A stretch of DNA of 32,000 nucleotides, taken from assembly GCA_000503875.1 (NCBI GenBank), contig CP006913.1:720001-752000 (forward strand). The letters run 5' to 3'. The position numbers and the translations under genes were made by a program. Origin of the DNA: Candidatus Saccharimonadota bacterium. GTDB taxonomy: Bacteria; Patescibacteriota; Gracilibacteria; Absconditabacterales; Absconditicoccaceae. Under the pieces are notes generated by a model. The model made no database searches. It was not told where the DNA came from and worked only from the letters and a program-made list of their open reading frames with translations. Within the stretch, counting starts at the first letter, position 1; the number at the start of each line of letters is the position of its first letter. Below, piece after piece: positions 4,694 through 32,000 of the stretch.

Positions 4694-4695
4694 AT

Positions 4696-5814: not shown

Positions 5815-5830
5815 AAATAAGACAAAGAAT

Positions 5831-5980: not shown

Positions 5981-6065
5981 GAAAATAAATTTATTGGCAG
6001 ATAATTTATTGCATCACACTATAAAATAACTATAAGCTGAAGGAATTTATTTTCTTCTTTTTTTG

Positions 6066-6587: not shown

Positions 6588-6601
6588 TTTGCTATAAAAA
6601 C

Positions 6602-7180
6602 ATGAAAAAAAAGTGATTCACTTTGATAGAAATTATGATTGTTTTACTTGTTTTTTCTGTTGGGGTTTTGGCTGTTTTGAGACTTATTCTTCATAATATG
6701 AGTACCATGAATGATTTAGAAGCCAAAACGACAGCAACACTTCTTGCAAAAGAATGATTAGAATTTGCTTATAATACAAGAGATAGTAACCGTTTAGCAT
6801 CATTACCTCGAGATTGTATTATAAATTATCAATATAATGCAAGTCAAAATTCAGATCCTTGTAAAAATCATTTTTTAGACAATCAATGATTACGAGCACT
6901 AGAAATAATAGGAAATGATATAGAACGAAAAAACATTTCTGACACAAAACTTTTCGAAGAATGAAAACTTTTTTTAAAAAATATATGATGATTAAAATAT
7001 ACCCATCAAAATACAGAACAACCAAGTATCTTTACGAGATATATTTCTTTTACAGGAGTCAAAGATAATGATAAGATTATAAATACATGATATCTTCTCA
7101 AAATAGAATCACATGTGTTGTATCAAAAATGAACGAGAACAGGAGAAATTGTTTTGGAATGATTTATTTGAAATTATTAG
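6602..7180 (+). CDS. Prepilin-type pseudopilin (PilV/GspI-like, 192 aa)
   Basis: MKKK-G|FTLIEIMIVLLVFSVGVLAV. The -1 Gly is TGA at 6614-6616. TATLLAKEGLEFAYNTRDSN resembles PilV/GspI. Confidence 0.75.
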
Positions 7181-7181
7181 C

Positions 7182-7802
7182 ATGAAACAAAAAAAACGTT
7201 GATTTACTCTTTTAGAATTACTCATATCGATAGGTATTATCGGGATTTTATTTGTAATTTTATTTAGAGCATATATTAGTATATCTCAAGTAACTTTTCG
7301 TGTACAACAAGCAAAAAATATTCAACAAGAAATGATTCGAATTTCTCAAATATTACAAAATATAGCAGATAATCATAGTATAAATTTTGAAGCGTACAGT
7401 GGATCACAAATGAATGATATATTATTTCTTTCTGGGGAAGGGGGAAATGTGAGTATTACATCTACGGGAGTCTGTATATCTAATTCCCCAGCAATCACAT
7501 GATTTACGCAAGAACAAAAAGACAATCCGTGTCAACTCATTATCATTAACCAAGACGAAAGTATTACCACTATAACTACCCCATCAGAAAGTTTTATATC
7601 CAAACCATATTTCAGTATATTTCCAACCGAACCAAACCAACAAATAATACATAATGATCAGATTGATGATTTCCCTTTTTTAAAAATAAAACAGCCAAGT
7701 TTTCAAGTACATTTCAATATATATACCCCTTTATACGAACAATGAAATTGGATAAATATGAGTTCGCTGTTATTCCAACAATTCTTTACTCTCCAATGAT
7801 AA
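7182..7802 (+). CDS. Prepilin-type pseudopilin (PilW/GspJ-like, 206 aa)
   Basis: MKQKKR-G|FTLLELLISIGIIGILF. The -1 Gly is TGA at 7200-7202. The start lies 1 nt after the upstream stop. Confidence 0.7.
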
Positions 7803-7803
7803 A

Positions 7804-8676
7804 ATGAAAAAAAAAGGAAATATAAGTTTATTGGTTTTGTTTATCTTAGTAGCTTGTTCGTTACTAGGAATTATTGCTGTTCAATATACTAGACATATGG
7901 CAATTCAAACAAGCCAAATATACAATTATTATAAAACATATTATCTTGCAAAATGAGGAAGTGAAATCGGATTAAGTTTAATGCAACTTCGTTGAGCAGG
8001 ATATTCGTGGGAAATAAAACAAGACGATCTTTTTGTTGAACAAAATATCAGAACGGGAAATGCATTTTCTTTGAAAATACAAGGAGATAATTCATTGATT
8101 TCCGAAAATCATCCAGACATAAAAAACTGTATAAATTGATTAGTTATCCCATGAAAACAAAGCTTGATACTTCCTTTATTTACAGATACAACTGAGCTTG
8201 GTTTATCAGAACAATTCACCGAACAAAATTTTTACAAAAATAAGTCTGACTTACTCAAATTAATAACTATTACTTGACTTGATATGCCTCGTGATGTCGG
8301 AGTATGAATAATTATTTCTTCTTGAGGAATGCTTTCAGAATTGGGTATTTTCTTTACAAGCTGAAGCTTTTGAGATGATGATTTTTTTCAAAAACTTTCA
8401 AATAAAATCCAAGAAAGTTTCAATACTATAGACGATCCAATTATTAGAAATCGACAACTAGAATCAGAACTACAAAATTATCTTATCATAGCAAACAAAG
8501 AAGATCAAGAATTACGTTTTTGTCTTAGTATTCCCAACGGAACATTAGCTCTTCCAAAAACATATATTTCTAGCTTCGGATATGCAGGAACAAAAAAAAT
8601 GGGATTAGAAACAGTTTATCAACAACCAATTCCTTCTTATCTTATAGACAGTAGTTTATTTCAAGGTTGAGAATAA
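7804..8676 (+). CDS. PilX/GspK-like minor pilin (290 aa; no Glu+5)
   Basis: MKKKGNISLLVLFILVACSLLGIIAV..., then YYLAKGGSEIGLSLMQLRG as in PilX/GspK-type proteins. It is the last gene of the pilin operon. Many UGAs are read through. Confidence 0.55.
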
Positions 8677-10104: not shown

Positions 10105-11304
10105 CTAAATAATAAATTTTCCATCTTGATAAATAATTTTTTCACTTCAATCTTCCAAATACGCAGTTACTGTCCTATCTGTCGTAGAAATAATATCAAT
10201 ATGTTCTGCGCTTTGATTAAATCAAAGTTCCTTTCTTTGTTCTGCAGATAAAGAACTTACATCTCCAGTATATGTTTCTTCATAAGCTCTACCAATTGCT
10301 ACATGAGTATTTCCAAACGGTCCTCACATATTTTCATCATACAACGTTTCTCCCATCGCTTTTGTAATACGAGAATGCCTACCATCAGTTAAGCTAAATT
10401 CTCCCAATGATTTTGTACCAGAAATTTCAAAAATTTCAGTAAGGAGATCTTTACCTTCTTGCGCATCAAATTCTATCACTTCACCTTTTTCAAATTTCAA
10501 TGAAATTCCAGTAATTTTTTGTCCATATCTATATAGTGGTTGATTAAATTTCATCCAACCCGATGTTTGTCTATAATCTGGAGAAGTGAAAATTTCAAAC
10601 GAAGGAATATTTCTACCGGATCCGCCAAGCCATTTCCTATCTGATCAAATACCTACCCAAAGATCAACATCTTGACCAACCATATGCACTTTTTGGATTT
10701 TTATAGTATTAAGTTTGGTAATAATAGTTTCTATTTCTTCATTAACTTTTTTCCAATGTTCTATAGGTTTTTCTTCATCCAAATAACAAGCATTAATAAT
10801 CTGTTTTCGATATTCTTCCAACGACATTCAAACTTCTTCTGCCATTGCTGGAGTTCCATATAATCCGAGAGTCCAGGTCATTTTTCCTTCTAATTCTTTT
10901 TGTGTACGTTTTTCGATATACGGTTTACGAGAAGAAACTCTAGCAGCCATTTTTTGTGGATCCACCCCTTTAAGTTCATATTTATCAGCTTCAGCAATAA
11001 CAGAAATTACATGTGTCATTTGCTGGACTTTGCCATGCAAAAAATGTTCTGGATAAAAAGTTATTTGTTCATCTGCTGCATGTTCATAAAAATGTCTACT
11101 CACTCCATCAGGATAATATTCAAAAATAGGATGAGCTCCTGCCTCCAAAATAGATTTCTGCAAAGGTAAATAAAATGGTTTTGCACATTCTGGAATCTGA
11201 ACAAAAACCACATCTCATTGTTTTACACCTTCCCCACCTCGCAATGCAAATTTCACCAATACATCAGCATATTTTTTTAACAATTCTGGACTTGGTTGAT
11301 ACAT
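10105..11304 (-). CDS. Aminopeptidase, M29 (AmpS/PepS/aminopeptidase T) family, 399 aa
   Basis: Fragments 10324-10554, 10645-10827 and 10828-11211 join in one frame via UGA. MYQPSPELLKKYADVLVKFALRGGEGVKQGD..., ...LYDENMGGPFGNTHVAIGRAY... TAG stop at 10105-10107. Confidence 0.85.
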
Positions 11305-11384
11305 AATAAATCAATAATAAACAATATAAAAAGTAAATTCTGATTTCTTTTCTGTTGTATAATTTTGCTTTCAAGTTACAATTG

Positions 11385-11412
11385 AAAATAAAAAAAGCTC
11401 GGAATTCCGAGC
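11385..11412 (-). terminator. Rho-independent terminator of the small lipoprotein gene
   Basis: Palindrome gctcgg-aatt-ccgagc (11397-11412), followed on the minus strand by a T-run (plus-strand A-run 11390-11396). Confidence 0.7.
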
Positions 11413-11413
11413 G

Positions 11414-11647
11414 TTAATAACGATAAATACCACTATAACTATTACTAGCTTTTCGTGCTGTTCTTTGCTGTAAACTTTGAAAATAAACATATCTACGATA
11501 GATATCCATTTTATAATAATTTATCGTGTAAACTGGTCCTTTAGGTCTAACACCATTACACGATGGATGATTCATAGATATTTTTTTTGTTCCAGAACAC
11601 GAACAAAGAAAAAAAACACTCAATAAAATAACAATAATTTTTTTCAT
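11414..11647 (-). CDS. Small putative lipoprotein (77 aa), basic and Tyr-rich
   Basis: MKKIIVILLSVFFLCSCSG: signal peptide with a lipobox-like L-C-S-C. The gene is bracketed by terminators. No UGA codons. Confidence 0.5.
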   Translation of the reverse strand: MKKIIVILLSVFFLCSCSGTKKISMNHPSCNGVRPKGPVYTINYYKMDIYRRYVYFQSLQQRTARKASNSYSGIYRY

Positions 11648-11763: not shown

Positions 11764-13224
11764 TTAATTAGATTCTCTTCTTTCCGCATGTCTAACGTCT
11801 TTGTTTTCTTTTTTGGTAAAAAATTCAATAGCTTCAGCCAATTCTACATGATCTTTTGCATATTCAGCAATATTAATACCTTGTTTATATGCTTCACATG
11901 ATTGTACCAAAGCCGTTGCTCCAGCCTTCGTACCTCTTGGATGAGCATGACAACCCGCTCCCATAGTCGTAATAAAGTCTACATCTCCCATCACATCAAT
12001 AAACGGTTTCAAAAGTGTTGGATTGAGTCCTCCAGAGATAATTGGGCAACATTTTTTGAGATTTCTCCAAGTATCATCTTCTTTGGTAAGATGTTGATGA
12101 TGATCTTCTTGTACTTTTTGAAGCCAATCAACATCATTTTCTGGAATGGTTCCCCATGATTGTTGAAAGATATGTCCTGGGGCGTCTAGCCCGAATATAC
12201 TATGTGCTGCAGTTACGTCTTCTTCTGGAGTTCCAGCCATTTTACCCACACCAGCTGTCCCCGTATGAATACCTGACGCCCCAGCTAGTCTAGCAAACTT
12301 AGACAACACTAAGACCGTATATCCGATAGGATTTTCTGGTCTTGTAAATGCTCCATGACCTGCTCTATGGAAATGAATAAATACATCAGGATATTTTCTT
12401 CTAAGGGTTTGAACTGCCATCCATCCTGCAGTTGTTCCATCAATCAAAAACGCATATGATCATTTTTCCATGCCTGAATTAACGATCAGTTCACATCTTT
12501 TGATCATAGTATCATAATCAGACGCTGACACGTTAAAGGAATGTACTTTTTTCTTTCCTGTTTCTTTCACTGCCTTATCCATAGCTTCTTTGATATGAGC
12601 TACCATTTTATCATAAGGACAGAAATCTTGATCTGCCTGTGGTTCATCATTTTTTACAAAATCTCCTCCACCTACTCGGAAATCATAGGCAACTTCAGCA
12701 TATTCAGCAGAAGTAAGTCCCATTTTTGGTTTTACAATAGTTCCAAGAATCGGTCTATCATATACATTCAAGTAAGCTCTCATATCATCCAAGGTATAAC
12801 TAGGTCCATCATATTGTTCAAGCATTGCAGCGGGAAATCGAACATCTAATAATTTAAACGCAGCGACTTCTTTCATTCCAAAAACATTTCCTGCAATATA
12901 GGTCAAAATATTTTGTACATTACCTCCTCTATCAAACAATCTCCATGGATAAGCAATCCAAACGAGGTTTTTTTCTAAATCAATTTTATACACCAAAGCA
13001 TTTAGCATTTTGGAATATGCTGTTTCTGTTTGTACAAGGAAATTTGTTCCTGTACTTGATTCTGCAGCTGCTTCACATGCCGCTTGCAAAATATTTAATT
13101 TTCCCCCAGGAATCAAATGGAAAGCAGCCAACATATAATCACCATTTCTCGGATCTTTAAGATCCATATTGATATATGCCGCCTGATGGGGATTTAAACT
13201 TGCAATAAGTTCTTGTAAATTCAT
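11764..13224 (-). CDS. rbcL: Ribulose-1,5-bisphosphate carboxylase large-subunit homologue, form II/III-like (486 aa)
   Basis: Fragments 11764-12447 and 12460-13224 are joined by UGA 12460-12462. Catalytic motifs are intact: GTIVKPKMGL, GGDFVKNDEPQ (carbamylated Lys plus Asp/Glu), HFHRAGHGA, GIHTGT, ISGGLNP, GAGCHAHP. Confidence 0.9.
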
Positions 13225-13370
13225 TTTTGTTTTTATATTAGAGATTAAAAAGTACTCAACAAAAGTATATACAAAAAATAGTTTTTTACAATTTTTTCAC
13301 CAATTTCTCCTTGATAAAAAGTTGACATACACTACAAATCTGATGTTTTAATAATATTAATATATATTTC

Positions 13371-14027
13371 ATGCTACAAGCAATCATTTTCGACATGGAT
13401 GGCGTTCTCGTAATCTGAACAGGATACGTTTGGAAATCATTTTCTATAGTTCTCAACAAATACGGAATAGATATTAGCCAATCAGACAGAAAAAAATATT
13501 TAGGAAAGTCTCTTGCAGATCAGATTAAAATGTGGAAAGAGGAATACAATATTCAACAAGATATTATTCTTGAAGATTTTGCCAAAGAAGCACTAACCTA
13601 TCAATTAGAATTTATGAAAAATGAATTACATCCAGACAAAGATGTCCAAAAACTTATAGCCGAAGCCAAAGAAAAAGGAATAAAGATTGCTGTAGGAACA
13701 TCTAGCCACAAAGAAAGAGCTATTACTATGTTAAAACTTGTGGGAGTTTTTGATAAAATTGATGCTCTGGCTACTTTTGAAGATGTTGAAAATGCAAAAC
13801 CAGCGCCAGATATTTTTCTCAAAGCAGCAGAATTAATGAACATACAACCAGAAAATTGTCTTGTCATCGAAGATGCACTCAATGGAATCGAAGCCGCAAG
13901 AGCAGCGCATATGAAAGTTATAGGAAAAGTATGACCACATCATACAAAAGAAGAACTTGAAATAGCCGATTTTGTTTTTGAAAATTTCGATGAAATAACA
14001 TTACAAAACATAGAAAATTTATTCTAA
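13371..14027 (+). CDS. HAD-superfamily hydrolase, subfamily IA (beta-phosphoglucomutase/phosphatase-like, 218 aa)
   Basis: AIIFDMDGVLV (DxDG), IAVGTSS, KPAPDIFLKAAE, LVIEDALNGIEAARAAHM. Two UGAs are read through; TAA at 14025-14027. Confidence 0.8.
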
Positions 14028-17710: not shown

Positions 17711-17740
17711 ACCAAAGAATCTGTGCCTAATTGCTTTGGT
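17711..17740 (+). promoter_or_regulatory. Conserved hairpin motif (copy 1) upstream of the ECF sigma gene
   Basis: accaaag-aatctgtgcctaattg-ctttggt. It is near-identical in loop and core to 22457-22486, with compensatory stem changes. Confidence 0.4.
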
Positions 17741-17828
17741 ATTGTTTAATTATACTATAAACTTTAGATGTTTAAATTCTAAAGTAATAAAGTATAACAT
17801 CGACGTTTATACTCTTACGCGTAAATGA

Positions 17829-18398
17829 ATGCCGGTTTCAGACAATGATCTTGTAAAGTCTATCCAACAAGGAAAGACTGATAATTTTGTACAGCTTTAC
17901 GAAAAATATGTTAAAAAGATTTTTGACTTTATTTTTTTCAAAGTTGGAAATAAACAAGATGCGGAAGATCTAACATCTGATACCTTTCTCAAAGCATTCG
18001 ACAAAATAAAAACATTCGACAACAAAAAAAATATTCAATTTTCATCCCGGTTATACAGCATTGCGAGAAATACCACTATCGACTTCTTCCGCCAGAATCA
18101 CACTGATTATCCGGAATATACATGGTTAGAAGAACAGTCCGTAGAAATAGATATGCTCCAAGGAATCCAAGACCGCGACAAATTAAACCAGATTTTACAA
18201 TTTTTAGACACCTTAGGCAACGAAAAAAAAGAAATTTTCCTCCTCAGAGTTTGGAATGAAATGTCCTATGATGAAATCGCTCATATCATAGGAAAAACAC
18301 CAAACACCTGCAAAGTAACCTTTCATAGAACACTTCAAACTGTCCTCCAAAAATACGGATATGTATGATTATTCATTCTACTACTTAGTATAAAATAG
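17829..18398 (+). CDS. ECF-type sigma-70 family RNA polymerase sigma factor (189 aa)
   Basis: Region 2: DAEDLTSDTFLKAFDKIKTF...RLYSIARNTTIDFFRQ. Region 4: EIFLLRVWNEMSYDEIAHIIGKTPNTCKVTFHRTLQ. The ORF reads through TGA 18366-18368 to TAG 18396-18398. Confidence 0.85.
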
Positions 18399-18425
18399 AT
18401 TCTTATTTACCAATAATTCTTTAAA

Positions 18426-19472
18426 ATGGCTTCTCATGTAATTGTTCAAGAAATCATCAACGATATTATCGCCATAGATCCAGATCTCAAAAACATCAAA
18501 TCTGAACTTGAAAAACTAGTACAGGAACTTATCGCGAACAAACCACAAACACCATTCACCAAAGAATTCAAAGAATCACTTAAAGCCCAAATTATCTGAG
18601 CTATCAATGAGCAGAAAATTTTATACGAAGAAAAAAAACGAGATCGAAATGAAATGTTTCATTCACTCAAATTTTGGATGGTTGGGGTTTCTACAGTTAC
18701 CGCATGATTATTGATATTTACTCTTTTTTATTATTTAGAAGATATCCAACAACCAGCTACACAAGTAACCTATATAGGAGAAACTAAAGAAAAGGAAACA
18801 ACTCCACTACAAGATGAAATACGCGAAATACAACCAACAATAAGATCACTATCAATGGACGAAGAAACCCCAACTGATACTCAAGGTGGTGGTGCTTCAA
18901 ACAGTGCTGATAATGTGATGATGTTGGCAATACCAGAAGCAAATGAAGAACCAGCAACAGACAATACTTCTTTAGTAAGAAGTTCCGAAGAATACGAAAT
19001 GATGGCAAAATTTATAAGCGCACCAGTTGAAGAAGCAACAAATGCCGACATGGCGATAGCCGAAATCACGACAGACGAAACATCTGCCACCAAAGCCCCC
19101 TCGCCAACTTTCTGCGAAACCAGCAAACAATTTCTTATCGCCAACAATATATCTGAAAACACTACCAAAACGATCACCTATGAGAATCAAATATATAAAA
19201 CAACCACAGATTTTACAAACAATATGATAATGATCGACCATATTGGAACCCAAGATGATAGCAAAATAGAAACAGAATTACCAAATCTGAATTTATTTTT
19301 CAAAAACAATAATTTTAATGTAGAGTCTGAATATTCTTCACCTATTATAGAAGAAACAGATACGTATTTTGAATATTATTATCCTAGACACAATAACCAA
19401 GAAGGAATAACCGTTCGTATCAATAAAATCAACAATATTATTTTCTCTGTTCAGAATATTTGTATCTATTAA
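18426..19472 (+). CDS. Single-pass membrane protein, putative anti-sigma factor (348 aa)
   Basis: It lies immediately downstream of the ECF sigma gene. About 80-aa cytoplasmic N-terminus, a TM (FWMVGVSTVTAGLLIFTLFYY), then an acidic/Thr-rich extracytoplasmic part. No zf-HC2 motif was seen. Confidence 0.4.
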
Positions 19473-19539
19473 ATTTTCTGCTTGAATTTTCCTAGCAATT
19501 TCATATCTATAGTAAACGCTTTATTCGTAACAGAATTTC

Positions 19540-20043
19540 ATGAGCAAAGTACAAAGAACTTTGGTTGTTCTCAAACCAGATACTATTGGACGTTCTATTT
19601 CTGGCGAGATTATTTCTCGTTTCGAAAGAGCAGGACTTCACATTGCAGGAATTAAAATGGTTAAACCAGACAAAGAATTTTTGTATCATCATTATGAAAC
19701 TATTGGACAGATGATTTCTCGTCGCGGACAAAAACCATTTGATATGGTAATAAGTTTGATGACAAAGTTGCCTGTAATAGCAATTGTTCTTGAAGGTGTT
19801 GCTGCTGTAGAATATGTTCGTAAATTAGTAGGTGCTACAGAACCAAAAGCTGCTGCTCCAGGAACTATCAGATGAGATTATGCACATATGTCATTTGGTT
19901 ATGCTGATGCTGCAAATGTAGGAGTACCAAACCTTGTACACGCATCAGGAAATGAAGAAGAAGCTGAAAAAGAAATCAAACATCGATTCAATGAAGAAGA
20001 AATATTTGTTTACAATCCATTAAATCACGCATTCACTCGTTAA
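19540..20043 (+). CDS. ndk: Nucleoside diphosphate kinase (167 aa)
   Basis: ERTLVVLKPD-type start (QRTLVVLKPD), GTIR-G(UGA 19873-19875)-DYA, NLVHASG (active-site His). Confidence 0.9.
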
Positions 20044-20375: not shown

Positions 20376-20984
20376 ATGATCCTCAAAACCTTCATTACAC
20401 AGTATATCAGTGAAGAAAATGTCGAAGACATTATTTTTCATAGCGGAAGTATTATTATCAAAGATACACTAAGAACAATTTTGCTATTAGCTGTTTTTTA
20501 CTGAATATTCTATATATTAGATTTGTCTATCCAATGGTTGCTATTACCATGGATTTTTTGAGCAATTGGAGCAATTCTATTGATGAAATTTGGTATTGAT
20601 ATATTTAACAAAGGAGTAGATTGTATTGTCTTATCTAAACAATGAATAACTTTTTTTGCCCGAGATGGAGTTTTTAAATATAAAACTGAATTTTTTGGTC
20701 GAGATTCCATAGAAACAATTTCTCATCAACAAAACACCTTTCGAGATAAACTTTTTTTGAGAGGAGATATTAAAATTGTTTTGGATCATGAAATAACATA
20801 CGAGTTTGAACAAGTAACTACACCAAAAAAACAAGTTAAAAAAATAATGAAACTCAAAGATCAATATCTTGCAAAAAAAGAATATGAAGAAGACTCACAA
20901 TCAAATATAGATCATGATCAAATTTGAATTCTTTCCGACGCTCTTTCTGATGTTATCAAAGAATATTTAGAAAAGAAAAAATAA
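20376..20984 (+). CDS. Membrane protein with a bacterial PH (YdbS/YdbT-like, bPH_2) domain, 202 aa
   Basis: Two TM helices, then LSKQGITFFARDGVFKYKTEFFGRDSIETISHQQNTFRDKLFLRGDIKIV, typical of membrane-flanked PH domains. Confidence 0.5.
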
Positions 20985-21007
20985 TTCATTTACTTTACTA
21001 TAAAAAA

Positions 21008-21634
21008 ATGTTTAGCGAATTAATAAGTCCCATAATTGATCGATATATGGCACATGTAAATTATCTAAGTGTTGGACTTCTTATGACCATAGAAAGTTCC
21101 TTTATTCCATTTCCTTCAGAAGTTATAGTTCCTCCTGCTGGATGGAAAGCTGCACAAGGATTACTAAATAGTGGTTGAGTTCTTCTTGCGGCAACTATTG
21201 GGGCTCTAATTTGAGCACTTATCAATTATTATTTAGCTTTACGACTCGGAAGAAAAGTCGTTTATAAACTAGCAAATACACGTCGAGCACACATGCTTTT
21301 GATAGACAAAGAATCTATAGAAAAAGCCGAAAATTATTTTCGCGATCATGGAAAAATATCTACGTTTATTGGACGCTTACTTCCAGCAATTCGTCAATTA
21401 ATTTCACTACCTGCTGGACTGGCAAAAATGGATATAAAATATTTTATTCTTTATACCACTTTAGGAGCGTTATTATGGAATATAATCCTATTTGTGACTG
21501 GATATATACTAGGACAACACCGAGAAAAAGTAAAAGAATATAATCATATTTTCACAAATATCGTCTATGGAGTAATCATTGCTGCGATACTATTTGTAGC
21601 AATACGTTATTTTCTCAAAAAGAAAAAAAAATAA
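21008..21634 (+). CDS. dedA: DedA/SNARE-associated family membrane protein (208 aa)
   Basis: LLMTIESSFIPFPSEVIVPPAG, YFRDHGKISTFIGRLLPAIRQLISLPAGLAKM. Confidence 0.8.
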
Positions 21635-21644
21635 ATTAAAGATC

Positions 21645-22259
21645 TATCTCCCATTGGGGTAATTTTCAGTCAATACCATCTTGAACAGCTTCCAAAATAT
21701 CTTGGAGGTTTGTTTTTTTATATTCATCAAAAGAAGTCTGGTTATTTTTATGAAAATTGGTCTCAACAATCTTTGGGTTAATCAAAAAAACGCGATTCCC
21801 TAACTCCTTTCTAAGAGAGCCAACAAATCCTCTTAATCAAAATTTAGATGCTTGATATCAAGCTCCCCCTGAAAACAAGGTTTTTCCTGCTACGCTTCAA
21901 ATAAAAATAAATTGCGCCTTTTCAGAAACCTTTGGCAAAAGATAGTTCATAAAGACCATATTTGCCCACAAATTGACTTGTAGCATCTCTTTTTCCTGCT
22001 GCAAAGAAATCGATCAAAAATCACCAAAATAGCCAATTCCTGCATTAAAGATAAAAACATTTATGTCCAGTTTGCTAAGTTTTTCCGCAAGAGAGATGAT
22101 TTGCTGATCATCACGTAAATCACATGGGAAAAAAATAATTTCAGGATGCTTCGAGGGGGATCTAGACGCAGTGTAGACCTCACAATTTGCAAGCAAATTG
22201 TTCGCCACATACTCCCCAATTCCACTAGATCCCCCACTGATAAATACCTTTTTTTTCAT
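21645..22259 (-). CDS. Short-chain dehydrogenase/reductase (SDR), 204 aa
   Basis: KKVFISGGSSGIGE (TGxxxGxG-type), IFNAGIG, IGSVAGK, YQASKFGLRGF (YxxxK). Fragment 22014-22259 is extended downstream through 5 UGA codons to TAG 21645-21647. Confidence 0.8.
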
Positions 22260-22345
22260 AGAAAAAATTTTCAGATAAATAATTTAGTTAGTTAATGTGT
22301 ATAAATATATACCAAAAGTTCAATAACAAAAGAATAATATCACAA

Positions 22346-22552: not shown

Positions 22553-22694
22553 ATAAGAAAACTTCAGATAAAAAAATCTCTAATAAAATTTGCTTGTGAA
22601 TTTTACCTATTAAAAAAGTAAGAGAAAATTTGCAAAATAAAAAACTCTCATTATAATTACATAGAAGATTTTTACTTCCTATTCAAAAACAAAA

Positions 22695-23261
22695 ATGTTT
22701 AAATCAACAAAAGTCCTATTAGTTGGAGCTTTCCTAACTCTTGTAGCATTCGCTTCAATGACAAAAGCTCAAGTAAGTACCGATGTATACCTAACAATTT
22801 TGGGAGGTAATGTAACAATCGGAACAACAGGAGCATTCGATTTTGGATCATTCCCTGTTGCCTCTACAGACACTAATGTAGAAAAACAATTTACAGGTGC
22901 TGATTATTTCCGAGTAGATGATATGAAAGGTGCTGATTTAGGTTATTATACAACACTTCAAGTAACTGACTTAACTGGAGATAACGGAACTATTCCAGCT
23001 GCAAATATCTCAACAAAAGTTAGTTCGGTAACTACAACAAAAATTAATGGTACAGATAATGCAAACGTTGTTGTTAGTAATACTCTTTTAAATTACACAC
23101 CACTTAACAGTGCAATTACTTTTATCAAAAGAGATACTGCTGCAAATACTGGTAAATTGGGTAGATATGCTGCTTTTCCATTTTTGCAAGTAACTATTCC
23201 TGCATACCAATCAGTTGGTTCATATCATGCAACATTGACCTATACTATTATTGAAAACTAA
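22695..23261 (+). CDS. Small secreted WxL-like surface protein (188 aa)
   Basis: Signal peptide MFKSTKVLLVGAFLTLVAFASMTKA|Q. VDDMKGADLGYYTTLQV and the C-terminal GSYHATLTYTIIEN mirror the two WxL-type motifs with Tyr in place of Trp. It is a clear paralogue of the last ~140 aa of the giant ORF. Zero UGA codons. Confidence 0.6.
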   Translation: MFKSTKVLLVGAFLTLVAFASMTKAQVSTDVYLTILGGNVTIGTTGAFDFGSFPVASTDTNVEKQFTGADYFRVDDMKGADLGYYTTLQVTDLTGDNGTIPAANISTKVSSVTTTKINGTDNANVVVSNTLLNYTPLNSAITFIKRDTAANTGKLGRYAAFPFLQVTIPAYQSVGSYHATLTYTIIEN

Positions 23262-23289
23262 AAAATCTATTCAAAATATTTCTATAAAA

Positions 23290-23312
23290 AAGACGCATAT
23301 GCGTCTTTTTTT
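23290..23312 (+). terminator. Rho-independent terminator
   Basis: aagacgc-atat-gcgtctt followed by a T-run. Confidence 0.8.
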
Positions 23313-23316
23313 AATA

Positions 23317-23344
23317 TTGTCAACTTATTTTTATGGATTATAAC
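23317..23344 (+). promoter_or_regulatory. Putative sigma-70-type promoter for the giant gene
   Basis: TTGTCA, 16-nt spacer, TATAAC. It would place the transcription start downstream of ATG 23333, which favours the ATG at 23450 (or 23402). Confidence 0.3.
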
Positions 23345-23449
23345 ATTACGCAAGTGATTATTATTCTGAATAATTCGAAAAATTGCCATATAAAAAAGCG
23401 TATGTATAATTGTATTGTGTCCTATTTCTGGATTACTCAACCAAAAAAT

Positions 23450-26400
23450 ATGAAAAAAACAACTAACCACATTATGTATCATGCCAAAAAAGTGCTTCAC
23501 CATAGTGGACGCTTGGCAAATAAACATAAACATATACTCTTAGGATATATGCATATTTGTCTCGTTATTATAAGCTTGGGAATATATCATATGGCAACAT
23601 CTATGTATGCACAAGAAAATTGAGAAACAATTATCATGGAAGAAAATATAGCAATCAGTTCAATGTTTGAAGAGACTTCAGAAACAATTAATACAGAAGA
23701 GGTTATTGAAGAAACACCAATTACTGAAACACCAATAGAAGAAATAACATGAGAAGAAGCTGAAAATATTTCATGAAATATTGAAGAAATTACTTGAGTT
23801 AACAATGATGAAATACTTTCTTGAGAAATATTTTCTTGAACAAATACTATTCTTTCATGAGAAACGACAACAGAAATAGATTCATGAACTATCCAAGAAA
23901 ACACTTGAATAATCAACGATGAAATACTTTCTTGAGATGCATTTGAAATATCGTCTTGAAATATAATTAACAAATCAAATACAGAAGACGAACAAGAAAT
24001 ACAAACAGGCACATTACCGATTATCGAAAGTCCATTAGATATAGAAAATTTAGAAGCATGGTTTGATGCAAATCAAACAAACAGTATGATTCTTTCATGA
24101 AATTTAGTCCAAATTTGGAAAGATAAACGTTGATTTTGACACAAAGCTTTTATAAACGAAGAAAACAAATGTCCTCTCTATATATCTGGCGTTGTAAATA
24201 ATCATGCAGCTGTATTTTTCGATAATATCGATGATGGATTAGAAACAAATATTAAATTAAATTCAGAATATACTATGTTTTTGGTATACAACAAAGAAAT
24301 AACTCCATTAGGATTTGCTTCTGCATTGGGAACAAACAAAAACTGGTTTATTGGATTTGAAAATAATAATTTTTTGTTTTTTTCATCAGGAGCAATTAAT
24401 GTGCCAAATTATCGAGAAAATAATATTTTTAAAATAATAAGTGTTGCTTCTAACAATACAGGAACAGCAGTAGCTATAAATAACAAACCAGTAAGCATAG
24501 AACAAACACCGCTTATACCAACAAACAATTTAAGTTTAGGAAAAATTAATGAAGATAATTTTGCTCTATGATGATATATTGCAGAAGTAATTATATACAA
24601 CACTACCCTTTCAGAATATGAAATAACAGAAATAAACAATTATTTAACAAGAAAATATTCTCCTTTTCTATCAAAATGATTGCCTACAAATAATTCAATT
24701 AATGAGGAGTCATTAGAATCAAACACAAATTTAGAAGAAATTACAATTTCAAGTGATAACGAAACAATTCAACCAGGAGAAACAAGCGAAGAAGAAATTA
24801 TAGAACCAATAGAAGAAATAAATGAAATCCAAGAAATAAATAAAAATCAAGAAACAAATGAAAACCAAGAAACAAACGAAGAAGAAATTATAGAACCAAC
24901 GGAAGAGATAAATTCAGATTTCTATTTTTCAAAAGCATTTAAAAAAGACGAACAAGAAGAAACCATAGGACAATTGCAAAAATTTTTAACTCGGTACTGA
25001 ACATACGAAGGAGATGCAACAAGCACTTATGATGAAAAGACAATAGAAGCAGTTTTTCAGTTCCAAACAAAAGAAAATCTCCTCAAAGGACAAGAAAAAA
25101 ACAAAAAAGTTCAATGATATCTTGGTCCATCAACAAGAGCCAGAATAAATAAATTATGGAAAGAATTTATAGACAACATTTCTTCTGAAAAAACAGAAAA
25201 TATAATAAACGAAGAAATTCTTACAGAAAATTCTATTGAAGAAATAGCAGATCCAAAAGAGCATTTTAGAAAAAAATTATTAGAATTTGGATTTTTACAA
25301 GAAAAGAGAAAAGATAAAGACGTATTGATGGGGAAAAAATGATTTTGATTGAGTGAAAGTGAAGGTATAATACAAGTATCAACTGTTATTACCAATGATA
25401 GCGAAAATCCAATTGGTGAAATAACATTTCCAGAAGACACTATTATAAAAACTCAAGAGAATCAAAATTTTACTTGAGAAATCGTATTTTTTGATATAGA
25501 AGAAACAAAACAATTAAAAAATGGTATAGAGAGTATAGAAACGTTCAAGGCCTGAGCAGATGAACCAATTTTCTTAGAAGATGATAATGGAAATGCAAAA
25601 AATGCTACAATCAAAGTAAATATTCCTAGTTCAAATTCAGGAAAAAATATTATTGTACAATATTCTCATGATGGATATACGTGGAATTATTTAGATACAA
25701 TACAACCACAATCTGATGAAAATGGGCTTTTTATAGAATTTCAAACAAATCATTTTACCATATTTTCATTAGGCGTTTGGACAGGTTCTTTTGTTATCAA
25801 CAATGATGATGCAACAACCACAGGACTTAATGTAACATTAAATACTAGTATCGTTTGAGCTACGCATATGAAAGTTGGAAATACTCCAGCTGCCAGAGAC
25901 AGCGCCAGTCGAGTTACTTACAATGCCAGTTATCCACGAACCCTCACTGGCGCTGATGGAGAAAAAACCGTTTACGCAATATTTAGTGGAAATGGATCTC
26001 TAGCTTATATTCAAGATACTATTTATTTTGATACTACTTCTGTACAAGAAGCAACAGGTCTTCAACTCCATCTTGATGGATCATACAATGGAACAACATT
26101 TTACGATCTTTCATCAAATAATTATACAGCAAATAGCATAAATAATGTTTTGACTACAACTCGATGAGGATTACCTACCATGGGTTTCAATGGTTCAAAT
26201 CAATATATCAACATAGTTCAACCTATTGTTACAGCATATCCTTTTACAATTTCTGCATGGGTAAAACCAGATAGAATAACAGGAACACAATGAATCGTTT
26301 TCAAATGAAGAAGTACAGCAAATAATAGATATTTTGGAATAAATTTAAATAATGCTGCATTTGAAATTACAGCGAGAAATACTAATGCAAGAACTGCAAA

Positions 26401-29400
26401 TGCAACAATTGCTGCACAAGTAGGACAACGATATCATGTAGTAGGAATTTTCTCATCAGCAACCAGCAGAACGATTTATGTAAATGGAGTGCAATGAGGA
26501 ACAAGTACCAATAGTGTAACTTTAGATACGACTACCCAACATCGAACAGTTGGAAAATATGCAGGAACTACTACCAACTATTTTTCTGGAGCTATTGACG
26601 AAGTTCGTGTATACAATAAAGTATTAACTTCTGGAGACATCCAAAATCTCTATATTAAAAAACCAAGTTTCGTGACAAAAACCGTTTATACAACAACTCC
26701 GGTACTCGAATGAGCAGTACCAGATGCATATATGACTATAAACATGATCCTCAATGGAAATAATTACTCAGCTACTAATTACCAAAATGGAACACGAAAA
26801 ACAAATATTATCAATCCTAACGTATCTGCAGGAACATATAATGTAACATTAAATTATACCAATATTTACGGAAGAACAGGAACTATTACGTACACAAATG
26901 GTTTAACAGTAAATCCACTCCGATCATTTATTTATACCCCAAATATTCAGACGTTTAACAATGTTACATCTACACTAACTTGATATTCAAATGATTATTT
27001 TATCACAAATAATAACGGATCTCCCGATTATACGTTTACAAGTAACGGACAATTTATTTATAAACTCCAAAGTACAACTGGACTTACTTATGAAACAATC
27101 GCTGCTGTAAATTGGATAAGAAAAGGATCAATCACAGGAACAAATCTGACTTTTTATGAAAATGAAATACTCAACAACGGATCAATACAAAACACAATAA
27201 GCTTTCAATTAACATGAGATACTTTCAATACTAATGTACCAACAAACGGAAGCATAACAATGATTGGTTTACCAGTTTGACTAACACCAAATTATTCTCT
27301 TAGTGGAACACAAACCTTACTTGTAGGATTGTCATGAACAGCCACAAGCCACGCAAACGCCAACGATACAAATAACTTGGAAATCAGATTCGGATCTTGA
27401 GCATTTACTACGTACACAGAAAACGAAATTATCAACAATACAATTACAGGAATCAAAGTTGATTTTTTGGCTCCATATGTAGGGTTACCAATATATCCAA
27501 GTGATGATACTATGATTGATGCCGATACTGATGTAGCAAATGGATGTTGAGATTGAGTATGTCAAGAATACAATTTTGGAGCAATGCAATATTTATGTAC
27601 CTCTGATTTTTGATCAAAAATTCTTCTTAAATTCAATCCGTCTAGTGTACCAACTGGAGCAAAAATCACCTCAGCAAAACTTAGACTTACAAGATATTAT
27701 ATCAATACACAAACTGAAGGTATGTCATTTAGTATTAGACCAATTATCAATAACTTCTCATGGACTGAAGGAACAAGTGCAAACACAAAAGCGTTAGCAG
27801 GAGAAGTTAACTACAAAATGCGTAAACGAGGACAAGAATCTTGGTATAATGGAAATATTGGTATGGTAAATTGAATAGATTATGGAACAACAAATATTGT
27901 TAGTGTTCCATCATTTACATGAACAATAACAAACAATATAACCCAAGAATTTTCATTTAATAGTTATTGATTAACAACAGTTCAAAATTGGTTAGACAAC
28001 CCAAATACAAATCAAGGAATTATGGTATGAGATAGTAATGATTATTGGTTGTGTATACGTTCAAAAGAATATGCCACAGTTGGAGAAAGACCTATGCTTA
28101 CAGTAACGTATGCTATCGATACCGATCGTCCAGAAATATCATCAATTAGTCCATATAACAATGAAACCAATGTTGGATTATCCAATAATTTAATTATAAA
28201 TTTTAATGAAAATATTAGAAAATATACAGGATACAACATTACAATCAAAAGACTTCATGATAACAGTGTCTTTGAAACAATAGATGCAGGAAGCAATAAT
28301 GTAACAATAAACAATGACGTAGTAACCATTAACCATGGAAATATTTTTGAAAATTTCACAGGATATTATGTAGAAATTCAAAGTGGTGCATTCAGAGATG
28401 TTGCAGGAAATAGTTTTACAGGATTTGTAGGATCAACAAACTGGAAGTTTACTACGCTTAACACACAAGTAGTTCCCGTTATCACATGAAACATAGCTAC
28501 AAATATTACACAAAATAGCGCCCAAGTAACAGCAACTATCACTTCAACATGAAGTGCAACCATTACTGAAAGATGATTTTATCGAAGCACAATAAATGGA
28601 TTTAATGATTGAGTAGGAACTAAAGTAAGTGAAACAGGAAATCGGGATACTCTTTGAGATTTTTCTCTAGTATTGACATGACTTCCATCAGGAACACAAA
28701 TTTATTTCAAATGATTTGCAACTAACAGTTATGGATCAAAATTTACCTCACAATCAGGATTCTTAACGCTTCCAGCAAAACCTATTTTGAAACCAGCTAC
28801 CTATATTGATAATGATGGATTTAGAATAAATCGAGAAACGACAACTGGAGCAACAAGTTACAACCTGCGAGTTTCAACTGGCGCTTCTTTTACAACTACC
28901 CTGCCTGAATATAGTGGAAAAGTTATTATAGATACAAAAGAAAATTTAACAGGACTCCAAAAAGAAACACGATATTATTACAAACTGCAAGCAGTAAATA
29001 ATGCTTGAGAAAGTCAGATTTCTGATATTCAATCCACACAAACAACTTGGTTACCATGAGCTCGATCTTGGCTAAAATTCGAAGAGCCATCAGGAAGTAC
29101 TACTTTTGATAGTTCATTAAACAATAACTATGGAATCTTACTTTGAGGAGTAATTATGTATCAAACATGAGTTGATGGAAAAGCATTTCAATTCGACTGA
29201 GTCAATGATGAAGTAAGTATTGTAGACTTTGATCACGGCCCAGATTTGACTATTTCTTTCCGATTCAAAACCAATAGTACCGGAAATAATATGCATCTCT
29301 ATAGTCATGGAGACAGTGCTGCAGTAAATTCTATCAATGTACTATTAAACAATAGTGATCAAACACTCAAGACATTTATCAATGGACAACAAACAATATT

Positions 29401-30373
29401 AAATCTGAATGGAACACTTTATCCAACACTCATCAACAACGAACGACATCTCTATACATTAACAATCGATGATAACTGAGAAGTCGCTGGCAAAAAGAAA
29501 GCAACTGTATATATAGACGGAACAGCAAGAATCAGTAACTCCTCTATCGATGCAGGAACATATAATCCGACGAACAATATCACCCTTGCCAGAAGAAGTG
29601 CAACACAAACAAATACATTTTATAAAGGACTTTTAGATGATGTCCGTATTTACAACAAAACTTTGACCTCTGGCCAGGTATATAATTTATACGCTGCCTT
29701 CGTCGATACAATTCCTCCAACAGCATATATAGAATACTCACCATGATCTGGAACATGCTACAATGGAGATGTTATTGCAACATTGACTGGATATTCAGAA
29801 AACATCACCATCACCAATAATGGATGATCAAATATGTATATATTTACAGAAAACAATACATTTACTTTTACCTTTAGAGATGATGGTTTTAATACAGGAG
29901 AGGTTATTGCAACAGTAGATTGGATTTGTAAAGAACCAGTAAATATTTGATGACCAGCAATGGTAACATGAGCTATAGAAGCTACTAGTGAATATCAAAT
30001 AGTTGAGCAAGAGTTTTCTGATTACTTTTGGATAAATGATCCAATTGGAGCAAATAATTGATATTATACAACCGTATCTATATCAGATCTTTCATGATCA
30101 TATGAAAGCATCAATAAAAACAATGTTTGATTAAAAGCAACTGAAATAACAACCCTTTCATGAACAGTAAATCCTCGTGTTGAAATAAATAGCAATCTTT
30201 TAAATTATCAACCAATTGGAGAACCAATCACTTATATCAAAAGAGATGTTGCAAGCAATTATTGAATAAAAGGAAAATATGGAAATAAACCATGGTTAAA
30301 ATTTGATATTCCTGCTTATGTAACTATTGACGATTATCATGCAACATTTACATATACTCTTTATGAAAATTAG
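23450..30373 (+). CDS. Giant secreted multidomain surface protein (2307 aa)
   Basis: I walked frame 2 codon by codon from 23333 to TAG 30371-30373; it contains only TGA interruptions and no TAA/TAG. Start chosen at MKKTTNH...ILLGYMHICLVIISLGIYHMATSMYA|QE. Three LamG-type domains end in ...G.I.EV.IYN..L, ..IDEVRVYNKVLTSGDI and ..LDDVRIYNKTLTSGQV. A peptidoglycan-binding-like repeat is present (LQKFLTRYGTYEGDATSTYDEKTIEAVFQFQ). Also present are a DNRLRE-like domain (ILLKFNPSSVPTGAKITSAKLRL...ERPMLTVTY), Ig/FN3-like modules and a C-terminal WxL-like domain. Confidence 0.8.
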
Positions 30374-30439
30374 TTTGCATCTGACAAAGATTTTTCTATA
30401 TACTAAGCTAATCAAAGTTTTAACTTTTACAAACAAAAG

Positions 30440-31489
30440 ATGAAAAAATTTTTGGCATTATTATTTTTTTTAGGAGCACTTTTTATAAGTAATACATATG
30501 CCGCTACTATTGGTGATGTTGCTTTAAGATTTTGTAATAATTCTGGATCATTAGAAAAAACAATATCGCTTACAACAAGTGGACAAGAACAAAAAGAAAT
30601 TTGTATGATGCTTATCAATTGATCTTATGAACCAACAGATGTTAGTATAAATTTTGTAGATGGAACAATAACAAACGATGCTGACCAAAAAAAAGCATGT
30701 AAAAACGAATGAGAAAATCAGAATTTTTGACAATATATGACTTTAGAAAATAAAACCATAAGTGTACCAGCCAGAGGAAACACTACATTTACAGGAGTTT
30801 TGGAACTTCCAGAAGAAGCAGCAGGAGAAATACATGGATGCGTAACTTATTTCATAAATAATGAAAAAAATCAGAAAGAAATGTTTACTATTATGGTTCG
30901 TAGGGCAAATTTTATAGATATTTTTGCAAAAGGAATAGTAACTATTTGATTGGAATTTGTCGATATTGAATCACCAACAAAAAGTATTTCAAAAAATCCA
31001 AAACTCGTAAGCTTCTTTGATACCAAAGAAAATAAATTATATATTCAATCTATGTTAAGAAACAAAGGAACTGCTGAGCAATGAATTACCATAAAAGGGG
31101 AAATTAAAAATCGATTTGGCTACAAAAAAACATTTTTTGAAGAGAAAAGGACTATTTTTTCAAAGCAAACATCAAACATAAATAATGTTATAGATGATTT
31201 ACCATTTTATAAAGGACCTTTCACTATAACATATAGCGTAGAACATAGTGCAAATGTATCAGAATGACTAGAAACAGATACAGAAGAAAAAACAGGAATA
31301 TTGGCAGAAACAACAAGCATTTTGATAATAACTCCAGCTACTTATATTAGTGTACTAGTATTTTTACTAATAATTGCTGGGATATCTTTCTTTATTATCA
31401 GAAGAAAGCATAAAAAAACAAAAACAGCTCACACAACAAACCATAAAGGAACAAAAAAACATCATAAAATAGTCGCAGAAACTTCCTAA
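30440..31489 (+). CDS. Membrane-anchored DUF916/WxL-interacting-protein-like surface protein (349 aa)
   Basis: Signal peptide MKKFLALLFFLGALFISNTYA|A, two beta-rich modules (e.g. ISVPARGNTTFTGVLELPEEAAGEIHGCVTYF), a C-terminal TM (ILIITPATYISVLVFLLIIAGISFFII) and a basic tail RRKHKKTK. Fragments 30440-30622, 30737-30949 and 31301-31489 are joined via UGA. Confidence 0.55.
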
Positions 31490-31580
31490 AGAAGTTTAAC
31501 GACGATTTCTATCGCTATAACACAAATCAACTATAACTTTGAAATTACTATAAGACAAATAATTTACTTTTTTTGAAACA

Positions 31581-32000
31581 ATGCGAAAAAAATTGTTCAT
31601 GTGAATATGCTTAGTATTTTTTTTAGCGTTATTTCACAAAGCAATAGCCGTCGATGTTGACCTATACTTAAGTATTGTTAACTCCTTTTCTTGAACGGTA
31701 ATAGTTACATGAAATAATACGATAACTCAAAACTGAATTACTTATACATCGACAACAACACCATCCCTCCAAATTTTCTCTAATGTTGGATCTAGATATA
31801 ACATATCATGAGATCTTGTATCAGCAATAAGTTGATCTCAATCAAATCCTTATACAATACAAACGATAATACAGGTAAACAAAACTAATGCTATAAATGA
31901 CATTTTTCCTATATTTTGGAGAGAAATAGAACTTTTAACACATCCAAAATTAAAGATATTTGTTGATACCTTAGGTCCAACACTACCTACTATCATAGCT
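31581..32000 (+). CDS. Secreted protein, 5' part (continues beyond the window)
   Basis: MRKKLFMGICLVFFLALFHKAIA|VDV signal peptide. The frame stays open to the window end with UGA read as Gly. Thr/Ser/Asn-rich like the other surface proteins. Confidence 0.5.

Follow-up and report, generated by a model that had tools for sequence, protein, structure and literature searches.

How do the episymbionts and predators of the candidate phyla radiation (CPR), whose genomes show no known anchors, hold giant proteins on their surface and recognise their hosts? This open problem takes a concrete form in four adjacent genes on a 32,000-nucleotide stretch of DNA (the window), which comes from candidate division SR1 bacterium RAAC1_SR1_1 (Absconditabacteria), a very small, uncultured organism, and whose proteins match entries of that genome. 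A reading of the letters alone, referred to below as the original prediction, had likened the four genes to the WxL/Csc cell-surface loci of Firmicutes. We conclude that they very probably form a divergent WxL/WxLIP (Csc-type) surface cluster, WxLIP standing for WxL-interacting protein, with which a monoderm-type, peptidoglycan-walled SR1 bacterium apparently holds a lectin-rich giant adhesin.

According to its authors, the RAAC1_SR1_1 genome of 1,177,760 bp reads UGA as glycine and encodes a full peptidoglycan pathway and no lipopolysaccharide pathway (PMC3812714); a sortase is present, with no predicted sorted substrates (Kantor et al., PMC3812714).

Four genes read under a recoded genetic code

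Under translation table 11, a listing of open reading frames (ORFs) breaks the cluster region into fragments only. With TGA read as a sense codon, ORFs of at least 150 residues take up 34 kb, against 7 kb under table 11, and one open frame runs for 2353 codons. Which amino acid does TGA encode? The sole TGA of the Ndk gene (19531-20043) aligns to the invariant glycine of PGTIRGDF in solved Ndk structures, and GANN(TGA)YYTT in the product of the second cluster gene aligns with GADLGYYTT in that of the first. Because both codons fall on glycine, the code is table 25 (UGA=Gly).

Read in this way, four consecutive plus-strand genes span 22695-32000 (Table 1): p1, which encodes a small protein; a gene for a protein of 2307 residues (the giant); p3; and p4. 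Gaps of 188 nt and 66 nt separate p1 from the giant and the giant from p3. The predicted layout of a small secreted protein, a 2307-residue protein, a transmembrane protein and a further secreted protein on one strand is borne out under code 25, and the recoded, Gracilibacteria/SR1-like CPR genome that had been proposed agrees with the SR1 source and with the Ndk alignment. Signal peptides were read by eye, from the n-, h- and c-region sequence pattern together with the N-terminal helices of AlphaFold2 (AF2) models.

A WxL-like domain shared by p1 and the giant

By blastp, p1 and the C-terminus of the giant are 45% identical over 127 residues (E=5e-33). The alignment stays in register up to the end of either protein and confirms the proposal that the last 140 or so residues of the giant are a paralogue of the small protein. 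The giant's copy matches positions 40-188 of the family hidden Markov model (HMM) with E=2e-60. Two motifs mark the domain: GYYTT and TLTYTI in p1, with the signature positions W1 at Y84 (Y84-Y-T) and W2 at Y183 (Y183-T-I), and Y2205-Y-T and Y2302-T-L in the giant.

Is this domain related to the WxL domain of Firmicutes? The bridge between the two families is made by a tblastn search of plasmids and by profile-profile alignment. Searched with one of two tandem orthologues of p1 from a related locus (L001), 72,556 plasmids (7.3 Gb) returned 14 records, and 8 of the 10 annotated matches are 'WxL domain-containing protein' genes of Enterococcus, Bacillus and Terribacillus. Six small WxL proteins, drawn from four Firmicutes plasmid loci that we fetched (L013-L016), served as the canonical alignment and 77 representatives as that of the SR1-type family. 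Aligned with each other by hhalign, the two give a probability of 98.0% (E=2.6e-13). The match takes in 148 columns, beginning with an N-terminal strand (G-x-L-T-I...F-G) and running to the C-terminus, and it keeps both motifs in register. GYYTT is set on canonical GWTLT and TLTYTIIEN on DLTWTLTDA, in keeping with the prediction that tyrosine here replaces the signature tryptophans (GYYT, TYT). Crossed controls, in which the WxL-like family was aligned with WxLIP and the reverse, yield 0.6% and 0.5%.

Hassan and Williamson defined structural scaffold residues around the WxL motifs (PMC9772566). At these positions the 77-sequence alignment has V/I/L at W1-10 (77/77), Asp at W1-8 (77/77), L/I/V at W1+4 (76/77), L/I at W2-2 (73/77), Thr at W2+1 (73/77), where canonical motif 2 has a small polar residue, and Leu at W2+2 (69/77). 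W1-6, with Lys in 45 sequences and Arg in 5, is a partial match to the canonical Arg, and Gly flanks the turn at W1-5 and W1-1, as in the canonical G-x-x-x-G turn. Thirteen of 19 close family members match the Pfam WxL family (best E=7e-7), as do 14 of the 77 distant ones, and two tandem orthologues in L001, 66% identical to p1, exceed its gathering threshold (GA) with 27.6 and 29.9 bits against 25. On the strength of these sequence comparisons we firmly regard the SR1-type C-terminal domain as homologous to the WxL domain at the family level.

The relative with 66% identity carries its small WxL-like gene in tandem duplicate (L001 2295-3662; L002 9140-10570). Both 190-residue copies have a tryptophan at the first motif (GWYTT), next to a giant whose own copy reads GYYTT, and since this tryptophan is encoded by a genuine TGG, the clade still samples Trp at W1. 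Nor is the loss of tryptophan genome-wide, as the giant holds 18 (p1 and p3 have none). The motifs lie 99 residues apart in p1 and 97 in the giant. We measured 93-104 in canonical small WxL proteins and 82 in one canonical large protein (Bacillus locus L015), and published spacings are about 106 for small and about 68 for large WxL proteins. With its spacing of 97, the giant carries a small-type copy, close to that of its neighbour p1, and not a distinct long type. Five residues follow W2 in p1 and in the giant, compared with 6-8 in canonical WxL proteins.

Of the canonical clusters retrieved here (L013-L016), those of Enterococcus and Terribacillus are carried by conjugative or mobilizable plasmids and that of Bacillus by a plasmid that cannot be mobilized; the one from Terribacillus lies among conjugation genes (VirD4-like, CagC-like, lytic transglycosylase). 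Since its clusters are found on plasmids, the WxL system is mobile, which bears on how CPR bacteria could have acquired it.

p3 and the WxL-interacting proteins

Does the cluster also encode a partner for these domains? p3 consists of a signal peptide, a PGBD(DUF916)-like beta-sandwich, a second, Ig-like beta-sandwich, a transmembrane (TM) helix and a basic tail (RRKHKKTK...). Its AF2 model (pLDDT 83) has helices at 2-15 and 299-325, two beta-sandwiches and a disordered tail rich in Lys, Arg and His, so that the signal peptide, two beta-rich modules, C-terminal TM segment and basic tail of the original prediction can all be seen in model and sequence. Published WxLIP proteins have 337-365 residues in the order SP-PGBD-HBD-TMH (PMC10599100); p3, with 349 residues, falls within this length range, and its signal peptide, two beta-sandwiches and TM helix resemble the layout.

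When the p3 model is compared with 350,542 PDB chains by Foldseek, the top three matches are 9i25_C, 9i1y_A and 9i1y_B, all of them E. faecium WxLIP (E=3.7e-12 to 4.8e-11, TMt 0.54-0.62, about 290 columns across both domains). The entry of 9i25_C is titled 'WxLIP from Enterococcus faecium locus A bound to long WxL'; its two-domain chain aligns with p3 over 293 columns at a TMt of 0.62, second beta-sandwich included. Next below the WxLIP structures come CfaA and CsuC, fimbrial chaperones of two domains, with E of about 1e-9 to 1e-7. By sequence, 15 of the 32 p3 family members match WxLIP_PGBD (best E=1.2e-6), one of them (P0046) passing its GA with 29.0 bits against 27.3, and against three proteins annotated 'DUF916 and DUF3324' the family reaches 97.4% by hhalign (E=9.8e-12). 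p3 is homologous to the PGBD of WxLIP, and its fold matches that of WxLIP.

The p3 family has an invariant motif of its own with conserved cysteines, FVDGTxTND...AC. Within the family N60, F72-V73-D74, T78, A86-C87, F96, C134, T136 and R154 are invariant and C55 nearly so; the motif NFVDGTITNDxDQKKACKNE does not occur in canonical WxLIP. The pattern of conserved cysteines suggests disulfide-stabilised loops at the place to which the WxL-binding hairpin would correspond.

Evidence against the assignment

A number of observations weigh against relating these proteins to WxL and WxLIP. The window's own proteins score under the Pfam thresholds: the top Pfam match of p1 is WxL (PF13731; E=0.0014) with 19.1 bits for a GA of 25, that of p3 is WxLIP_PGBD (DUF916, PF06030; E=0.0055) with 17.2 bits for a GA of 27.3, and the C-terminal 150 residues of the giant, scanned alone, have no Pfam match. 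p1 and the giant lack the two Trp-x-Leu motifs: both namesake tryptophans are absent and the first motif, Y-Y-T, lacks the leucine as well. Among the 77 family sequences W1 is Tyr in 62, Trp in 10 and Phe in 3, while W2 is Tyr in 53, Phe in 16 and never Trp. The AF2 model of p1 is all-beta (pLDDT 78.5, low confidence in the N-terminal stretch 28-54), and its best PDB matches are FimA-type pilins with a TM-score of about 0.4 (0.35-0.45; E=2e-5); no WxL chain, including the solved long-WxL chain of 9i25, is among its top 50 PDB matches. Profiles of the WxL-like family find no match among PDB sequences, and the p3 family profile finds no WxLIP there. For p3, the WxLIP hhalign match covers the signal peptide and PGBD half only, PF11797 (DUF3324/HBD) has no match at E<0.1 in any of the 32 family members, and the N-terminal WxLIP motif NQIDKxxxYFDLK is absent, the family consensus at this place being GDVxLRFCN.

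Even so, the checks that the original prediction had called for and that were run here favour it, within the following limits. p3 as a DUF916/DUF3324 protein is upheld for its PGBD, by P0046, by hhalign and by the top-ranking WxLIP folds, and DUF3324 goes undetected by sequence. The search with the WxL profile speaks for the family through the top match of p1 and the orthologues above the GA, and against it through the score of p1 itself and the giant's C-terminus. Fold comparison supports p3 and leaves p1 with FimA at low TM-scores. An NCBIfam scan of the four cluster proteins returned nothing relevant; a consensus-like WxL bait, meant for the WxL chain of 9i25, matched only OspA by composition and was discarded.

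The giant protein and codon use in the cluster

An extended His/Lys-rich signal or anchor region opens the giant and is followed by an acidic, glycine-punctuated region, the passenger domains and the C-terminal WxL-like domain. Both the lectin-like and the peptidoglycan-binding modules that had been proposed for it are recognised by Pfam (Table 1), and an internal blastp of the giant places the end of a second Laminin_G-like copy at residue 2077. Residues 1-200 (23450-24049) contain an unusually long His/Lys-rich n-region ahead of the hydrophobic segment (MKKTTNHIMYHAKKVLHHSGRLANKHKH...), and this n-region is kept in the L001 orthologue (MIKIHKHIIHHTKRAIHHSKKILHH...). In the acidic, Glu/Thr/Ile-rich stretch the punctuating glycines (EEITG, ENISG, EILSG, EIFSG) are nearly all encoded by TGA.

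The share of TGA among glycine codons differs within the cluster, from 0/15 in p1 and 6/23 in p3 to 64/189 in the giant and 6/8 in as much of p4 as lies inside the window. Elsewhere in the window it is 0/4 in L31, 1/39 in RuBisCO, 3/35 in S1 and 10/28 in PilC. At the giant's rate, the chance of finding none in the 15 glycine codons of p1 is about 0.002 (0.66^15). The differences would fit a codon bias against TGA that is tied to expression, and since p1 avoids this codon as RuBisCO and S1 do, it is probably the abundant subunit. Promoter-like hexamers precede both p1 and the giant (Table 1) and are suggestive only, as such sites are no more numerous in this AT-rich region than shuffled sequence would lead one to expect; a scan of the region for terminators found none.

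Distribution of the cluster

Is the gene set peculiar to this genome? A scan of GTDB species representatives gave ten loci, all from uncultured metagenome-assembled genomes labelled Absconditabacteria or Patescibacteria and all TGA-recoded, and we assigned their genes with purpose-built HMMs on code-25 ORFs. Every locus with enough flanking sequence holds a small WxL-like gene, a large protein of 975-2930 residues with a C-terminal WxL-like domain, a WxLIP-like gene and a p4-like gene, and the p1/giant/p3-type set is present in L001 and L003-L012. The four-gene set is kept across three different gene orders, which gives good grounds to think that its members function together. On a constant C-terminal domain, the large proteins carry passengers that differ by lineage (Laminin_G_3, H_lectin, DUF5122 beta-propeller).

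A HMMER search of 1.84 billion representatives returned 428 clusters at E<=1e-3, 271 of them at E<=1e-10. Among the 428, nearly all of the best 150 carry the domain right at the C-terminal end of a protein of 180-1850 residues, and the only names on family matches are 'uncultured bacterium (gcode 4)', Absconditabacteria and Patescibacteria. A word-indexed search with the broad 77-sequence profile found only uncultured CPR-type entries and no bridge to Firmicutes; precomputed Pfam tags on a few orthologues show that the databases touch the edge of the clade. Full-text searches found no paper that treats WxL in connection with either Absconditabacteria or the 'candidate phyla radiation', and the sole paper that joins WxL and Patescibacteria is irrelevant; according to published surveys, more than 91% of WxL sequences are in Firmicutes. 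By these searches, the WxL/WxLIP cluster is not yet described outside Firmicutes-type bacteria, nor is the form that it takes in this UGA-recoded clade.

The fourth component

p4 runs past the end of the window. Its signal-peptide pattern, read by eye in the visible 140 residues, agrees with the proposal that the fourth gene encodes another secreted protein. Orthologues of 320-500 residues have a signal peptide and a conserved beta module, then an fn3-like module and a C-terminus that varies by lineage, and the one in L001 has a weak SLH match (E=0.0039). A p4-like gene is present in 8 of 10 distinct related loci, permuted gene orders included; L004 and L005 stop short of the place where it would be expected, and the contig of L010 is short. 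No LPxTG occurs in any cluster protein or p4 orthologue.

We considered p4 as a third WxL protein and rejected this, since its orthologues lack the C-terminal motif and hhalign aligns only 23 N-terminal columns at 25% probability. As a relative of WxLIP it reaches 22% by hhalign and was likewise set aside, and an apparent WxLIP-p4 fusion ORF in L006 was dismissed because it spans a masked run of N (X residues). At the level of domains, p4 has no homology to either family.

The mature N-termini of three products begin alike, with TDVYLTI in p1 (22770-22800), GDVALRF in p3 (30503-30530) and VDLYLSI in p4 (31650-31690). A similar first mature strand is conserved within each of the three families, and between the p4 and WxL-like families it is the only stretch that hhalign aligns. 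The giant's WxL-like copy is without it, and the same strand is of low confidence in the p1 model. This common strand may be one that can be exchanged between chains, or the three proteins may have a processing signal in common.

Neighbouring genes

A block at 3346-8676 on the plus strand, about 14 kb upstream of the cluster, resembles type IV pilus and type II secretion system (T2SS) genes in code-25 translations read by eye; besides the PilC/T2SSF-like gene and at least three prepilin-like genes (Table 1), it holds further small membrane proteins. By these readings, the pilus block and the WxL-type cluster make the window rich in surface and attachment genes.

Table 1. Features of the window discussed in the text, with positions in the 32,000-nucleotide stretch
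Feature	Position	Strand	Basis and remarks
p1, small WxL-like protein, 188 residues	22695-23261	+	Signal peptide and single WxL-type domain; no Trp, no TGA codons
Giant, large-WxL-like protein, 2307 residues	23450-30373	+	64 in-frame TGA (Gly) codons
PG_binding_1 module of the giant, residues 504-544	24959-25081	+	Pfam PF01471, E=1.3e-6, 28.9 bits, above GA of 23
Laminin_G_3/concanavalin-like lectin module, residues 914-1065	26189-26644	+	Pfam PF13385, E=6e-39, two stretches
Big_5 bacterial Ig-like domain, residues 1557-1669	28118-28456	+	Pfam, E=1.7e-11; followed by weak fn3-like matches at about residues 1800-1860
Second Laminin_G-like module, approximately residues 1925-2077	29222-29680	+	Second Pfam stretch; start approximate
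C-terminal WxL-like domain of the giant, residues ~2164-2307	29939-30373 (stop codon included)	+	W1=Y2205, W2=Y2302; paralogue of p1
p3, WxLIP-like protein, 349 residues	30440-31489	+	Pfam, AF2, Foldseek, hhalign
p4, fourth secreted component	31581 to beyond 32000	+	N-terminal 140 residues visible, rest past window end
Promoter-like hexamers TTTGCA-17-TATAAT	22629-22657	+	10/12 match, 38 nt upstream of p1; suggestive only
Promoter-like hexamers TTGCCA-16-TATAAT	23383-23410	+	11/12 match, 40 nt upstream of the giant; suggestive only
PilC/T2SSF-like gene	4621-5814	+	By eye
At least three prepilin-like genes	6036-6587, 6557-7180, 7107-7802	+	FTLIEIMIV / FTLLELLISIG N-termini, by eye
M29 aminopeptidase-like gene	10105-11520	-	By eye; adjoins RuBisCO-like gene
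RuBisCO-like large-subunit gene	11764-13347	-	GGDFVKNDEPQ motif, by eye
HAD hydrolase-like gene	13242-14027		By eye; adjoins RuBisCO-like gene
ECF-type sigma factor-like gene	17712-18398	+	By eye; together with the next gene about 3 kb upstream of the cluster
351-residue protein, possible anti-sigma factor	18417-19472	+	Central hydrophobic segment, by eye
DedA-like gene	20840-21634	+	Window translation
Short-chain dehydrogenase gene	21636-22283	-	Window translation; just upstream of p1

Discussion

How close is the SR1 locus to the known clusters? By a published definition, a WxL cluster comprises one or more full-length WxLIP and two or more WxL proteins, encoded no more than four genes apart (Hassan et al. 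2023, PMC10599100). With p1, the giant and p3 consecutive, the locus falls under this definition, and the predicted architecture of WxL/Csc loci is accordingly upheld. The WxL clusters of E. faecium and E. faecalis (loci A-C, Elr operon) likewise place a small WxL, a large WxL and a WxLIP gene side by side on one strand; there, too, the small secreted protein is a WxL-type domain alone, the passengers of the large one are adhesin-like and vary, and a further protein, about 340-365 residues long, has two Ig-like domains between its signal peptide and a TM helix at the C-terminus. Unlike in Enterococcus, the SR1 tryptophans are replaced (by Tyr here, by Tyr, Phe or occasionally Trp retained in the clade) and the first motif is Y-Y-T in place of W-x-L; the giant's C-terminal domain is of the small type, with a spacing of 97 and 45% identity to p1; and HBD/DUF3324 is unrecognisable by sequence, with FVDGTxTND...AC of p3 in place of NQIDKxxxYFDLK. 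Compared with Firmicutes clusters in general, the SR1 passenger is 2-4 times longer, and the host is a CPR bacterium that reads UGA as Gly.

The Csc cluster described by Siezen in 2006 is said to consist of CscA (DUF916), CscB (small WxL), CscC (large WxL) and CscD (an LPXTG protein). The Csc clusters of Lactiplantibacillus plantarum and Listeria and the Bacillus tropicus plasmid locus L015 are four-component loci like the one studied here, their fourth member being a small or medium secreted protein. A lectin-type passenger on the large protein is common to both sides, an L-type lectin in L015 and Laminin_G/ConA-type modules in SR1. In contrast to Csc, p4 has neither LPxTG nor detectable homology to CscD and has a conserved N-terminal module of its own.

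Very large multi-domain predicted surface proteins are also known from Vampirococcus lugosii and other Absconditabacteria (PMC8080830). This lineage comprises predatory or episymbiotic SR1 with peptidoglycan and type IV pili, and its giant surface proteins were proposed to serve host recognition (PMC8080830). Whereas that paper names no device that holds them, and WxL and DUF916 do not occur in its text, the SR1 locus points to a specific anchor domain and its partners. Chaperone-usher pilins and chaperones (FimA, CfaA) share Ig-like folds with the cluster proteins, but in the SR1 case there is no usher in the cluster and no outer membrane, and the likeness consists of low TM-scores with no sequence relationship.

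What could the four products do together? All of them would be exported through Sec signal peptides. p3 would be held in the cell's own membrane by its C-terminal stop-transfer helix, with the Ig-like domains facing the wall and the basic tail in the cytoplasm, as the positive-inside rule would have it for a TM helix with RRKHKKTK... behind it. By analogy with the solved E. faecium complex, its PGBD-like domain may capture the WxL-type domains of p1 and the giant, probably by beta-strand augmentation; strand insertion is the predicted mode of WxLIP-WxL binding (PMC10599100). p1, the giant and p3 would thereby form a non-covalent platform at the peptidoglycan wall, of which p1 would be a probably abundant subunit, and p4 may stand where Firmicutes loci have their LPXTG (CscD-type) partner. 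The giant's passenger of about 2100 residues, with at least two Laminin_G/concanavalin-type lectin modules, PG_binding_1, Big_5 and fn3-like spacers, would project outward from this platform and bind glycans on a partner surface, most likely that of the host or prey cell of an episymbiotic or predatory lineage. Passenger turnover, the way of life of those Absconditabacteria that have been observed, and type IV pilus genes close by lead us to infer a role in attachment to host or prey.

Could the same homologous machinery do another job? It might organise the cell's own wall, or capture and process extracellular polysaccharide. Carbohydrate utilisation is reportedly what Siezen et al. originally proposed for Csc clusters, and the giant's lectin-like and peptidoglycan-binding modules fit glycan capture or self-wall binding equally well. 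The organism is also metabolically sparse and likely a scavenger (PMC3812714). We nonetheless hold this main functional rival to be unlikely: no glycoside hydrolase or transporter genes are found in or beside the cluster, in the window and in related loci, passenger turnover between lineages is typical of partner-recognition adhesins, and the cultured or observed Absconditabacteria are epibiotic predators (PMC8080830). Even less probable, in our estimate, is a donor-strand-type fibre in which p1 is a pilin-like polymer built by N-terminal strand exchange, the giant its tip adhesin and p3 a membrane-tethered chaperone-like factor. The self-complemented FimA pilins that p1 matches best, the chaperones that follow WxLIP among the matches of p3, the similar first strand of p1, p3 and p4, and the apparently high expression of p1 by codon use would suit such a fibre, as would the low-confidence stretch 28-54 of p1 and a copy in the giant that starts at family-HMM position 40 and so lacks the first strand. 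Yet the FimA matches, with rmsd of 7-13 A at their low TM-scores, are consistent with generic Ig-like similarity, neither an usher nor a sortase is encoded in the cluster, and for p3 the chaperones rank below the WxLIP structures.

The likeness to WxL and WxLIP might, finally, be convergent or spurious and the C-terminal domain an unrelated, CPR-specific anchor. Scores under the Pfam thresholds, the missing tryptophans and the lack of a PDB sequence match are what one would then expect, but orthologues above the GA, hhalign probabilities of 98% and 97% against controls below 1%, a WxLIP fold as top PDB match and the same three-part architecture all contradict it. The plasmid search, which landed specifically on annotated WxL genes, and hhalign with its controls effectively refute this idea, to which we assign next to no probability. 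A divergent WxL/WxLIP cluster that holds a giant adhesin thus remains our preferred reading. A bolder version, which we put forward as a long shot, makes the Trp-free, single-type WxL module of UGA-recoded CPR (Absconditabacteria and relatives) a general mount for interchangeable giant lectin adhesins. In it p1 would polymerise by exchange of its N-terminal strand, giving a short fibre or lattice that the membrane-tethered WxLIP-like protein nucleates and the giant caps, with p4 as a structural adaptor. If true, monoderm cells would have in the p1 fibre a counterpart of donor-strand pili that needs no usher and sets host or prey specificity.

For the WxL family, the preferred reading would mean that the namesake tryptophans are dispensable while the scaffold around them is not, and that the membrane-anchored topology of WxLIP is natural in a thin-walled cell. 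Finding the system so far outside Bacillota raises the question of an ancient origin or a transfer between Firmicutes and CPR. To the problem of how CPR episymbionts and predators display giant proteins and recognise their hosts, the cluster would give one clade's concrete and conserved answer: an anchor domain at the C-terminus, a partner tethered in the membrane whose structural homologue has been solved, and a conserved fourth component. With 428 representative clusters matching it, the C-terminal domain could be used to list the repertoire of displayed adhesins of any such genome.

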